Shown in pieces: positions 17,744-38,275 of a stretch of DNA of 64,000 bases. Within the stretch, counting starts at the first letter, position 1. Every line of letters begins with the position of its first letter. Position numbers and translations under genes: made by a program. This stretch comes from Eledone cirrhosa (taxonomy: Eukaryota): NCBI GenBank assembly GCA_964016885.1, contig OZ024740.1:177444001-177508000 (forward strand). The letters are read 5' to 3'. The notes under the pieces were generated by a model that had not been told where the DNA came from, ran no database searches, and worked only from the letters and a program-made list of their open reading frames with translations.

Positions 17744-18168
17744 AAGTATGTACACGTACATACATATATGTATACAGACGTACAGTAGTATGTATATATA
17801 TATACATACATGCACATATATATATATGTACGTATGGATTCACTGAACATTTATTGTAATGCTCGGTGTGTTTGTAAATAAACATCTCGTATTAAGCCGT
17901 AGTGTCCAGCAACCATCGTTGCTCGTTTGTTCAACACTGACAAAAGAACGCTGTACTAGTTTCAAGCTTATTAGCTATCGTTAGCAACGTACACCTTCCT
18001 GCCAGATTGTTGAACGTATATACTTACCTTATGCATATTAACGGCTGAGCAGCCCAATTTGCATATCGAGTGGGTTAATCGCCCGGGTGCACCAAAAACG
18101 ATAAACGGAAAAAATGAAACGAAATTTCATTTCCCACTCTTAGTACGGCTGTTACTTAAATATAAGTA
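17744..18168 (-). mobile_element. Family-F hammerhead cassette (motif 17949-17989, minus), circularly permuted relative to other copies
   Basis: Minus: cgttg-CTAACGA-tagctaataagctt-GAAA-CTAG-TA-cagcg; homologous to 36952-37175 and 37925-38275. Confidence 0.7.
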
Positions 18169-19029
18169 TATATGTATGTGTGTTTATGGGTATGTATGTG
18201 TATGTGTATATGTATATATGGGAGTATAGATGTGTATGTGTGAATATAGATATGTATGGATATGTATATATATGATTATATGCATGCGTGTGGATGTGTA
18301 TTTAGGTTTGCATCTATTTGCACGTATGTATATTTTGGTTAGATATCAATATAACTGTACCTCTCTCTATAAGTAGTGTGAATATATGCACTTTGTAGAC
18401 TATGAAATTTATGTGTTTTAACTATGCCAACATGTACTTATCTGAGTTTGATTGTTTATGCATAGACATATTTAGTAATATTTTAGAGCGTATAATATGT
18501 TATATTATACTGAGTGCAATTTACCACACTATACTATATTGTGTTGGTTAAATTGTATATTATCGCATTACTATATCTCATTATCTTATTATAATTTTCA
18601 TCTTTTAATATACTAACTTTCCTAGCCATAACATTAATTTATATACACCATAAAACTCAATACAACACTAATCACCATTTATTTTGACATTCCTTTTAAA
18701 TTCACTATACAAGATACACTCAACTATCAGTTTGACAATCCCCTTCCTTCCTAATATATCTTTATGCCATTTCTACTAACACCTTTCAACCATTCCTTTC
18801 AAAGGGTCATGACCTCAACTAAAGTGTATTACTTTTCATCTTAACACCATATGAAAAAAACAATTTGATTCGTTAGTTCTTCAACAACCTACAAATATGA
18901 ACATGATACTAATTCAGAGTAAAATTATTATTGAATAAAATTATTATGGCTTTTGAAAACAGCTGCTGATATACATGTAAGTAAATATTCTCTCTATCTG
19001 ATAGTTTGTAAACTTACATAGATCAATAA

Positions 19030-19074
19030 CTGATTATAGATACAATGTATTATCACCATCTAGAAACGATCGTA
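19030..19074 (+). ncRNA. Degenerate minimal hammerhead motif
   Basis: CTGATTA-tagat..atcta-GAAA-C-GATC-G-TA; stem II and palindromic loop 3 intact; G8 changed; stem I not evident. Confidence 0.45.
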
Positions 19075-21097
19075 AAGCAGTGAAGTATATCTCTAATGAT
19101 TTGATATTTTATTTCATTGTTTTAACTTATATCATGACTCTGTTTTCCTTTTAATGTTTTATTGTTTTCTGAGATTTATCTTAACCTACAACATTTTCAA
19201 CATATGGATTACATTGGGTTCTTCATGCAGAATAGACCCCACAACTTACAGTGGATACCTCTGTGTATATTCTAAACGCTTCAAAATGCGGCTTCGTACT
19301 TTATATATATATATATAATAATGATTTCTACTATATGCACAAGGCCAGCAATTTTGAAGGAGAGAAAAAGTCGATTAAATCTACCCCAGTGCATTACTGG
19401 TGTTTTATTTTATCGACCCCGTAAGGAGGAAAGAAAAAGCTAACAGAAAAAAGCTATCGAATAAGACCGATACACCTCCGATTGCTTTCCCACTCACACA
19501 ATAATTTAAGTCAGTATCATAAAGACACCAGCCCAAGGAAATAGAGTGGACACTAATACTTTAGATAGTGAGAAAAACAATTTCGTGTGGATAGAAAATT
19601 TGTTGTTCTAGCCCCTGATTAATGCATTAGTTTCTGCTATACCATCTGCTAGCGACAATCCAAAGGGAACTGCCGTGCACAGAAAGCACTATTAATCTTG
19701 GCTAAGAGCAGCTTCATCAGCGCGAAATCAGCCCCACCGGAACAGATCGGCTACCAACTGACTGCTCTGGTGTAATTCTATCATTGCAGTAGAAAACTCA
19801 ATCTCCAGTGTCACATGACAGCGAAGAGGAGGTAAGCTAGTACTGCCTATTCACGGAGAACTCGTTGGTGCATATTGAATTTGAAAAAATGAATATATAT
19901 AAGATTGAGAGCCATCAATTTAGACTAATACGACCATGTTCAGTTAAGTACTTGATACTTGGGTAAGTAGAATGTATGTATTGTAATTAGTTAGTGCCTC
20001 ATGGCGGCGGAGCTCATGCCCTTTCCACGGCGAGTGTATATCGTTATCATGTATGAATATTGTGTTTATATATATATATATATATATATATATATGGTTA
20101 TTTCATGAACGTCACAGAAAGGCACAAGCTACATTAATACTGCTGATCAACCCATGAGGTCGGACGATACAAACGAAACTTTACTGAGCTTCATGCCGAT
20201 AGCTCATGAACAGAGGGAGTGTTAGCGTATGTGTGAGAGAAAGAAAGAGAGATAGTGTGAGTGTGTGGGGGCGGGTGTGTGGGTGTGTGTGTGTGTGTGT
20301 GTGTGTGTGTGTGTGTGTGTGTGTGTGTGTGTGTGTGCGCGCGCGCGTGTGTGTGTGCGTGAGTGAGAATTTCTTGGTTGGCTACATATAGACGCTTCCA
20401 ATCTAATTCAACCCAGAGCCTTGTACCTTCTGTTAGAGGAACACTTTCTTCGTTGACCTACCCCACTTTCTGTTTGGTTTCGGTCATGTCAAGGATGTAG
20501 CCGCACCTACCGTGGGTTGGTGAGTCTATTTAACCCATAGTTGGGGTGGATCACCGTTGATTCTGATGATTCATCCACCTTTTTAATAGCTCTTGTTATT
20601 TTGTGCTGATGGGGTTCCACTTACCTTCCTCACCAGACCAGGGTCTGGTGGGTGAGCTAGTTTAGTCGCCACACGACCATGAACGTGGTTGAACTGGGTT
20701 ACATGGTACCTGTAGAAAGCAGAGGTCTGACATCAACTGAACAAGCTTACCCAGACTAAAATGATAAAACATCAATTATTAAACATAAATGATTGAAAAT
20801 AAATGTAATGTACGGAATTCAGTGTATGATTTAGTAAATAGTTGCTGTTTTCATTTCCACTCCTATGTACATATTAATGCACAATAGAGGTAATATCGTG
20901 TGTCGGACACCGCTGTTTCAGTACACATAAGATATAGACAAATAGCAACTAAATAAAACTGTTTTCGTTTAGTCTCATTACAGTAACGACCGACAAGTTC
21001 ATTTGTTTACCGAGTGAAGTGGAACACGTCAAATCGGACCAAGGAAAATCTGTTTCCATTGGTCTTCCCAGTTGCTCTTATTATTTCCTGGTACTAG

Positions 21098-21270
21098 CAG
21101 TATCAGTAGAGGGTCAGACGCCATGCTTTGCATCATAGAGTTACGGTCCTTTATGAGTTCAAATCCCGCCGAGGTTAACTTTGCCTTTCATCCTTACGGG
21201 GTCGATAAAATAAAGTACCAGTAATGCACTGGAGATAATTGCTAGCCTTGTGCCAAAAGTAGAAACAATT
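21098..21270 (+). mobile_element. SINE family S1
   Basis: Matches 10640-10831. Confidence 0.85.
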
Positions 21271-21793
21271 AGTTACTGTTAGCAACTCCTGCCAGAAAGA
21301 GCAACGTGAAATAAAGTGTCTTGTTCAAGAACATAACGCATCACCCGGGAATCGAACTCGTAATCTCCTGATTGCAAATCCAAATTTCTAACCACTAAAC
21401 CTGTAGTAGTTTACAATATTTCTGTGACCTCGTCACTGCCATAAGTTTCAATGTACGCATCATTCTTATTGTGTGAATACTTATTATTGTTATTCAAATT
21501 CAAAATCTTGAGATAACACTAACTACTATCAACAACACCCCAGGGGACTGAGACACTCCGGTTGGAAAGCACTGCATTACAGATTGAGGAGTGTGCGTTT
21601 GTGGTACATAGCGTGTGTGTTTGCCTCCAATGATCGTTCTAATTTTAAGGGACACATTAGTTCATGTGAATGAAGAACTAGTAAAAAGAAATATATATGT
21701 ATGTGTGTATGTATACGTCTGTATGTGTGTATGTGTAAGTGAATATGTGAGTGTTGATGTAAGTATATATATATATATATATATATATATATA

Positions 21794-21969
21794 CGTTATT
21801 CCGGGTTGAATCGGAGGTAACCACAGTAAGTAAGGTACTCAATACATAGCAGAGTATAACAGTTTTAATATAGATGAGATTCTACAGGACTAGAACTGTT
21901 TCATTCATTTGAAATCATCAGATGAATGAAACAGTTCTAGTCCTGTAGAATCTCATCTATATTAAAACT
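21794..21969 (-). mobile_element. Family-E foldback cassette in (TA)n
   Basis: 48-bp inverted arms 21861-21908 / 21922-21969; minus strand CTGATGA-tttc..gaat-GAAAC-agttcta-GTC; tail with GAGTAC; relatives at 34444-34550, 37225-37420 and 44220-44280. Confidence 0.72.
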
Positions 21970-36745: not shown

Positions 36746-36951
36746 TATAATGATAATAAATAGGGAACAAAGAAACAGTATTGCATCATATAAATATTTA
36801 ATTACATATTACATACGTTTCACTACCGATCAGCTCGAGGAACGATTGCATTATGTTCGTTCCTGACTCTGGAATCGGAAGCTCCTCAGATATGTTTTCA
36901 CATGTAGACTCACGTCCATATATATATATATATATATATATATATATATAT

Positions 36952-37180
36952 AAACGGAAAAAATGAAACGAAATTTCATCTCATTTCCCACTCTTAGTAC
37001 GGCTGTTACTTAAATATAAGTATGTACACGTACATACACATATGTATACAGACGTACAGTAGTATGTATATATACATACATGCACACATATATATATATA
37101 TATATATATATATGTACGTATGGATTCACCGAACATTTATTATAATGCTCGGTGTGTTTCTTTACAAACACACCGAGCAT
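36952..37180 (-). mobile_element. Family-F truncated copy ending in a short foldback
   Basis: Homologous to 37925-38110; atgctcggtgtgttt..aaacacaccgagcat hairpin at the truncation point. Confidence 0.7.
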
Positions 37181-37224
37181 GTATATATATATATATATAT
37201 ATATATATATATATATATATATAA

Positions 37225-37420
37225 GATTTAATATAGAAATAGCTTCTACAGTACATGAACTGTTTCATTCGAAGAAAATCATATGGAAAGCCCTGATGAT
37301 TTCTTTCGAATGAAACAGTTCTAGTCTTGTAGAAGCCATTTCTATATTAAACGTTGTATATATTTTACTATGTATTGAGTATCTTACTTACTAGGGTTAC
37401 CCTCAATTGAACTCGGGACG
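37225..37420 (+). mobile_element. Family-E foldback cassette
   Basis: CTGATGA at 37293-37299, GAAAC at 37312; inverted arms; tail homologous to 21794-21860. Confidence 0.7.
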
Positions 37421-37924
37421 CTCTCTCTCTCTCTCCCTCACTCACTCACACACACACACACACACACACACACACACACACACACACACACACACACACA
37501 CACACACACACACACACACACACACACACACATATTTATATATATATATATAGCGAGTGAGAGAGAGAGAGAGAAAGGGAGAGAGCGAGAGAGAGAAAGA
37601 GAGAGAGAGAGAGGGGGAGAGAGAGAGAGAATCAAACACATTCACATACAATGCAATGAAGCGTTTACGGGCAAGGCCAAATGATTAAACTTTCAAGAAT
37701 CCCGGCTGTCAAATAAAAGTAAAGTGGATATGAGATGGATAGCTATGCCAGGTGCAGTTGGATCAACAAAGCTATTGTGACGATTGCTATCGTCCAACGA
37801 ACCAAACTGCACACACACACACACACACACACATATATATATATATATATATATACATATTATATATATATATATATATATATATATATATATATATATA
37901 TACAAACACACATATATATATATA

Positions 37925-38275
37925 TAAACGGAAAAAATGAAACGAAATTTCATTTCTCACTCTTAGTACGGCTGTTACTTAAATATAAGTATGTATACGT
38001 ACATACATATATGTATACAGTAGTATGTATATATATACATACATGCACACATATATATATGTACGTATGGATTTACCGAACATTTATTATAATGCTCGGT
38101 GTGTTTGTAAATAAACATCCCGAATTAAGCCGTACAGTGTTTAGCAACCATCGTTGCCCTTTTGTTCAACACTCACAAAGAACGATGTACTAGTTTCAAG
38201 CTTATTAGCTATCGTCAGCACCGTATACCTTCCTGCTAGATGATTGAACGTCTGAAAGTATATACTTTCCTTATG
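37925..38275 (-). mobile_element. Family-F hammerhead cassette in (TA)n
   Basis: Homologous to 17744-18168 with permuted block order. Confidence 0.75.
38183..38223 (-). ncRNA. Minimal type-I hammerhead ribozyme with intact core
   Basis: Minus: cggtg-CTGACGA-t-agct-aata-agct-t-GAAA-CTAG-TA|catcg; 5-bp stem I, 4-bp stem II, palindromic CUAG, GUA site. Confidence 0.78.

Follow-up and report, generated by a model that had tools for sequence, protein, structure and literature searches.

Family F, a 422-nt hammerhead repeat of Eledone cirrhosa with two fixed 3′ ends in (TA)n tracts, probably spread by a Penelope-like enzyme

How the non-long-terminal-repeat (non-LTR) retrozymes of animals move is an open question: Cervera and de la Pena (2020) name Penelope-like elements (PLEs) as candidates and RNA circles as likely templates (PMC7229834), and a study of Xenopus states that the mechanism remains to be shown (10.64898/2026.07.22.740005). 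Concerning the PLEs, that of the anole is described as starting reverse transcription at two internal sites that bound a "tail", with both DNA strands cut and extended, AT-rich DNA preferred and a protein dimer predicted (PMC11167929). The tail is reported to be optional and to lie on one of the inverted ends (PMC3846280; PMC8557442). The present work deals with a repeat, family F, three copies of which lie in a stretch of 64,000 nt of Eledone cirrhosa (assembly GCA_964016885.1, contig OZ024740.1, positions 177,444,001 to 177,508,000, forward strand), called here the window, in whose numbering coordinates are given. With a probability of about 0.72, the 422-nt hammerhead repeat of family F, which is non-coding and has copies ending at two fixed sites by (TA)n, was likely spread by the reverse transcriptase (RT)-endonuclease of a PLE copying a ribozyme-made RNA circle. 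It is a previously undescribed family within the known animal non-LTR retrozymes and behaves like a non-autonomous PLE. The literature searched contained no description of the family and no count of the one-site-per-arm rule reported below; most subscription papers were outside its scope, the supplements of PMC7229834 and 10.64898/2026.07.22.740005 may list the family, and a motif search in one supplement of PMC8557442 (a metadata sheet) gave 0 matches.

Fixed 3′ ends and head-to-head insertions

The reference unit (422 nt) was defined as the reverse complement of 17744-18165, with base 1 at 18165 and the predicted cut after base 212. The RNA sense of the element is the minus strand, because the ribozyme reads on that strand. 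The 3′ ends of the copies are concentrated at two sites, S1 (approximately unit bases 5-9) and S2 (approximately base 65), which are some 60 nt apart and located 215 and 275 nt, respectively, from the cut. In 70 loci picked by position, 125 segments had their 3′ ends at S1 (49), at S2 (54), elsewhere (21) or at a locus edge (1), and 92 of the 103 that ended at S1 or S2 ran into a TA tract. Genome-wide, exact junctions amounted to 4,081 for S1-(TA) and 3,243 for S2-(TA), with controls at 0. The 5′ ends were scattered, every 20-nt bin of the unit being occupied. The stretch between S1 and S2, called block A, is the "tail" of PLEs.

The three copies of the window, all on the minus strand, end at these sites and run into (TA)n. 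Copy 1 (17744..18168, locus L001) belongs to subfamily F1, comprises about 1.02 units and has its 3′ end at S1; block A, which contains a hairpin, forms its 5′ end (18101..18165). Copy 2 (36950..37170, about 0.5 unit, with a short inverted piece reaching approximately 37181) and copy 3 (37924..38280, subfamily F2, about 0.85 unit), both in locus L031, have theirs at S2. An earlier note on this DNA had read copy 1 on the plus strand as a block B followed by block A, and copies 2 and 3 as A followed by B, with an identical junction, and this order was confirmed. Its interpretation of a retrozyme-like unit of about 420 nt, TA-rich inside and copied from a circular or multimeric template, also held, the circle being a probable one, but the free circular permutation that went with it did not: the two orders mark neither permutation nor the ribozyme cut, and are explained by two fixed 3′ ends plus scattered 5′ truncation. 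Copy 1 reads B-A because it ends at S1 and extends back for one unit, and copies 2 and 3 read A-B because they end at S2; that copy 1 measures almost exactly one unit seems due to where its 5′ end happens to lie. As the similarity between copies 1 and 3 is about 86%, while each reaches about 95.5-97% with copies elsewhere in the genome, they are separate insertions of two subfamilies.

The host genome (3.0 Gb) is rich in microsatellites. The 31-nt ribozyme core in its first variant gave 10,046 exact matches versus 0 in the reversed-pattern control, so that the motif is not due to chance; the variant with the young loop gave 1,719 (11,765 for the two together) and a motif 90 nt downstream of the ribozyme gave 16,919, with controls again at 0. 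Solo copies and arrays are both present, the latter with units spaced 420-433 nt and without an LTR pair. The earlier note had named a lack of tandem multimers as evidence against its reading; multimers of 2 to >30 units were found, including arrays of at least 7 units and one old array of about 38, so this objection falls. Among the 125 segments mentioned, 37 exceeded 1.15 units and 8 reached 1.9 units.

The unit is non-coding, the frames of at least 120 amino acids over its copies being microsatellite runs only, and no reading frame for RT plus GIY-YIG endonuclease occurs in family F copies. Its GC content is 0.35-0.38, and its circular fold (z from -3.8 to -7.9) is stronger than that of the antisense strand. 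The TA-rich part (17744..17830 in copy 1) is predicted to form a single long hairpin. Target-site duplications are masked by (TA)n: one of 13 bp was read by eye at L015, and a scan gave six, mostly low-complexity repeats. A genome search with the 65-nt block A as query, in which common words were skipped, gave no match, and an Rfam search of the window gave no hammerhead among the 150 of 229 matches listed (E up to 1), which were mostly microsatellite matches; repeat finding in the window was likewise dominated by these. The family extends to another organism, for a 298-nt contig from organism C (run X6) carries a diverged copy of it in which the core letter is intact, together with an inverted piece.

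Of the 26 position-picked head-to-head pairs with both arms at a site, 25 combined an arm ending at S1 with an arm ending at S2. These came from 38 pairs, 12 having been set aside for an arm ending elsewhere, and 2 of the 25 are duplicates in L183; the exception, L208, scores as S1/S2 in a test based on coordinates only. That test, run on the first 100 S1 and 72 S2 ends of contig 1, found 22 of 22 neighbours within 6 kb to be discordant, versus 49% expected (p about 1e-7; 4 overlap the position-picked set). In loci picked by score, 14 of 17 pairs (27 found) followed the rule. As a control, six of six ORF (open reading frame)-bearing head-to-head PLE insertions in (TA)n, read by eye, consisted of one short and one tailed arm; RT plus GIY-YIG was confirmed at two of these loci (L152 and L161). 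The lengths of the arms showed no asymmetry and a weak correlation (rho 0.31, p 0.054, 39 pairs). The simplest cause of the one-site-per-arm rule would be a single protein dimer acting on one RNA, each half using one site.

The same rule was followed by a sister family, G, in 15 of 15 pairs (19 found) and in 3 of 3 further pairs. Family G has a unit of 466-468 nt with its own hammerhead and at least 6,939 copies; it is colinear with F (62% alike over 419 nt) and shares with it the tail hairpin and, at the same location, the TA-rich hairpin. It is very young and forms arrays of about 30 units (loci L220, L256 and L331-L337). The window holds no full copy of it. A tail-like hairpin beside the PLE of L161, considered as the end of that PLE, was rejected, as it belongs to family G.

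The ribozyme and its RNA as template

The intact hammerhead that the earlier note had placed at 38183..38223, in copy 3, was borne out as a type I ribozyme of the minus strand, with a predicted cut after GUA at 38188. Its core CUGACGA begins at 38218, stem II is AGCU/AGCU on a U.U base, followed by GAAA, and stem III is the palindrome ACUAGU. The hammerhead of copy 1 (17949..17989, would-be cut site 17954) is predicted to be inactive because its core, CUAACGA, is changed at position 5; copy 2, whose truncation precedes the ribozyme, has none. The pairing of stem I in both copies, another earlier claim, is maintained as G.U in copy 3 and U.G in copy 1. Across the F subfamilies and family G, pair 3 of stem I is U.G, G.U, A-U or U-A, and stem II covaries in G relative to F, while the core is unchanged, a sequence pattern that argues for selection maintaining the hammerhead fold. 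The variation of the core (0.015, versus 0.049 in the rest of the unit) was not used as support, since many copies had been picked by their intact core. A supposed dead ribozyme fixed in a whole array (L007/L270) was withdrawn, the core change being present in only 2 of 3 units. Hammerheads with a short palindromic stem III are reported to be active through dimers (PMC4209133), and axolotl HHR_Amex2, with U.U at the base of stem II, to cleave efficiently in dimeric form (PMC7229834); of 9 predicted Xenopus retrozymes, 8 are reported without cleavage in vitro (10.64898/2026.07.22.740005).

Concerning the template, 81 arms were studied at loci picked by the downstream motif: 62 reached the cut site and 59 of these passed it, so that 5′ ends did not accumulate there (3 of 62). 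No insertion or deletion occurred at unit bases 209-213 in 239 copies, a sample picked partly by intact core. It follows from the read-through and the intact junctions that the template was continuous across the cut. Young two-armed insertions contain from 9 to about 25 near-identical units with alleles of their own. In family F, L340 (3.7+5.0 units, homogeneous) carries two alleles found together nowhere else among the loci examined, L341 has 4.7+4.8 homogeneous units and L202 has 2.4+7.5. In family G, 19 units examined in L256 had 0 variable sites, and an insertion on C18 (17.6+8.0 units) had no substitution and one 3-nt deletion. Matches to the haplotype of L256, 69 in all, were distributed over 7 places; the longest run among them forms one arm of the two-armed insertion on C18, so the assembly holds no longer master of that haplotype. 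Young arrays are mostly star-like in unit variation, with 14 single and 0 shared variable sites in L269, and 27 single and 2 shared in L022, and older arrays are mostly star-like too. Rare alleles were common to both arms in 12 of 34 cases, versus 76 of 2,749. Among the readings driven by a PLE, an RNA circle as template is considered quite probable. It is an even bet that one circle is copied simultaneously by both halves of the PLE dimer, from S1 and from S2, each half extending one end of the broken (TA)n tract, so that a single event gives up to 25 identical units.

The process would start with the transcription of tandem copies on the ribozyme strand. Neighbouring hammerheads, probably paired via the palindromic stem III, would excise a monomer to be ligated into a circle, by analogy with the retrozymes of coral, mussel and axolotl. 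A protein, presumably of a PLE and probably a dimer, would cut both strands of a (TA)n tract, and complementary DNA (cDNA) would start within the RNA, one DNA end priming at S1 and the other at S2, as suggested by the observed end positions and one-each rule. Each cDNA would pass the cleavage site, and could circle many times; read-through and homogeneous multimers are observed, and the circle is what they would be copied from. Two cDNAs joined at variable points would give a head-to-head insertion, and one joined to the flank a single arm, both being structures observed. Older arrays would later be reshaped by duplication at the DNA level, which is also observed.

Several observations weigh against this reading. 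Three of the score-picked pairs (L004, L017 and L044) violate the one-each rule. The predicted lowest-energy fold of the monomer differs from the active fold and traps the core, and stem II begins with U.U, so that cleavage may be weak; moreover, the core is altered at position 8 in 2 of the 3 ribozymes of L270. Duplications of blocks at the DNA level, accompanied by chimeric units, are found in L178, L263, L265 and L267, and such duplication also marks the old array of about 38 units. The identity of units could come partly from assembly polishing, which hides variation. One allele supposed to be specific to L202 turned out to characterise a subfamily of 1,719 copies, so that rare alleles shared by arms may mean the same lineage, not the same molecule. 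Nor is read-through by itself proof of a circle: the anole PLE in vitro copies mainly uncut RNA and does not need ribozyme activity (PMC11167929). Finally, no terminal sequence common to F or G was found in 68 distinct GIY-YIG places among the 150 matches listed (10,597 candidates), Naiads not having been looked for, nor was one found in 30 of 31 other ACUAGU hammerheads.

Two further readings were discarded: the claim of a private loop II allele of L202, for the reason just given, and dimer circles behind the alternating arrays L178 and L267, the chimeric unit revealing a DNA-level duplication. In L335 (G000:C744), an array changes haplotype within a unit after about 9 identical units, by template switch or by insertion into an older copy. 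Changes from A to G on the RNA strand are fixed in all units of both arms in L256 (unit bases 109-114, with three changes within 6 nt), L340 (base 309), L046 and L200. They make up 4 of 9 events fixed on both arms versus 19 of 226 singletons, a post hoc comparison, and may have arisen by editing of the circular RNA before it was copied into DNA.

The alternative that survives best keeps the same PLE enzyme and start sites, but supposes as template a long linear RNA, transcribed from a homogeneous master array and left uncut; arrays would lengthen only at the DNA level, the ribozyme being incidental. The predominance of uncut RNA as template of the anole enzyme in vitro, the DNA-level duplications and the existence of long arrays able to act as masters speak for it. 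It is nevertheless considered unlikely, since young arrays are mostly star-like, each haplotype (L202, L340, L341, L256) would need a long homogeneous master of its own, the longest run of the L256 haplotype is itself one arm of a two-armed insertion, and the ribozyme shows compensatory change. Much less probable is that the unit is merely the terminal repeat (pLTR) of an unfound autonomous PLE, the copies being its truncated ends. Tail, target and inversion pattern do match PLE ends, Xenopus retrozymes are described as homologous to pLTRs (10.64898/2026.07.22.740005), and the PLE search took in a small share of the candidates; but the unit is repeatedly joined to itself head to tail with no ORF between, and no examined F locus was seen to continue into a PLE ORF. 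An ancestral origin of the unit from a pLTR is likely, while its identity with a present-day pLTR is not. That linear ribozyme-cut monomers were linked by an RT passing directly from the 5′ end of one monomer to the 3′ end of another is hardly credible, for although this would likewise yield multimers crossing the cut site, and one template switch between haplotypes is seen in L335 (away from that site), neither junction indels, in the 239 copies picked partly by intact core, nor an accumulation of 5′ ends at the cut was found.

PLEs and other hammerhead elements of the genome

PLEs are numerous in this genome, as reflected by the GIY-YIG matches, and several have hammerheads and (TA)n ends. 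Copies of F near three of the loci (L085, L161 and L162) look like separate insertions, L085 having been only lightly read. The window itself contains terminal fragments of two autonomous PLE families, each with a U3-A8 variant of the hammerhead: one at 38284-38510 (-), adjoining copy 3, and the other at 4640-4840 (+). A hammerhead family H occurs at 37220-37420, 21800-21960 and approximately 44261, as short head-to-head pairs in which one arm is short and the other tailed. Another family, inserted in (TA)n as head-to-head pairs and bearing half of a hammerhead (GAAA...GUC) together with a palindromic loop, is present at 4510-4570, 11115-11285 and 11365-11555, one arm having a tail of about 75 nt. 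Degenerate hammerheads of a further family lie head to head at 35183 (-) and 35465 (+). Elsewhere in the genome, scattered and diverged hammerheads with the ACUAGU palindrome (L296, L299, L303, L312, L314, L317 and L318), around which no PLE-like frame was seen within 1.5 kb, are possibly relics of older relatives. A long interspersed nuclear element (LINE) occupies 29548-32517 (+), with an open frame of 989 amino acids and endonuclease (PF03372) and RT (PF00078) domains, and broken LINE frames occur at 1056-2627. As for related literature, Naiads are described as targeting (TA)n and lacking canonical hammerheads (PMC8557442), and the main text of PMC13282606 does not mention ribozymes.

Comparison with known systems

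The class of retrozymes is known and the tail had already been described; what is new is that the insertion footprint has been measured, linking a retrozyme to the PLE machinery and favouring rolling-circle copying. The genome offers a large and very young record: insertions free of substitutions, the footprint of PLEs, arms that strictly take one site each, and long arrays of identical units. From it the RNA, both start sites and the target can be named, and the design is common to at least two families, F and G. If one circle were indeed copied by both halves of a dimer, this record would show directly, in genomic sequence, that animal retrozymes undergo rolling-circle retrotransposition, and the tail and inverted ends of PLEs would be accounted for.

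As described, the endonuclease-positive PLEs (Poseidon of Anolis, PMC11167929; Penelope of rotifers, PMC3846280; Naiad and Neptune, PMC8557442) resemble F in having two internal sites of RT initiation, which bound a tail, this tail on one inverted end, head-to-head insertions, AT-rich or (TA)n targets and a hammerhead in the terminal repeat. They differ in that F has no ORF for RT or GIY-YIG, and in the tail, of about 60 nt in F versus 30-40 nt, although some PLEs of this genome have tails of about 41-63 nt. Also, the anole enzyme is reported to show no strand preference between start sites in vitro (PMC11167929), whereas the arms of F almost always differ.

The Xenopus retrozymes, presented as derivatives of PLE pLTRs (10.64898/2026.07.22.740005), share with F the non-autonomous dependence on PLEs and the occurrence as monomers, dimers and multimers. 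That study, mainly on vertebrates, is based on co-occurrence and pLTR homology and leans to local DNA amplification for the arrays; the case of F is based on its insertion footprint, with no homologous PLE found among the places examined. Also among the systems closest to F are the metazoan non-LTR retrozymes of Cervera and de la Pena (PMC7229834), with one type I hammerhead per short, low-GC, self-paired, non-coding tandem unit, and co-occurrence with PLEs; axolotl HHR_Amex2 even shares with F the U.U at the base of stem II. RNA circles have been demonstrated for those retrozymes, while F is known here from genome sequence alone. Conversely, mobilisation of the circles by PLEs is put forward there as a hypothesis, without analysis of insertion ends in the portions of that paper considered here, whereas in F two fixed ends, a (TA)n target and two-armed homogeneous arrays have been measured.

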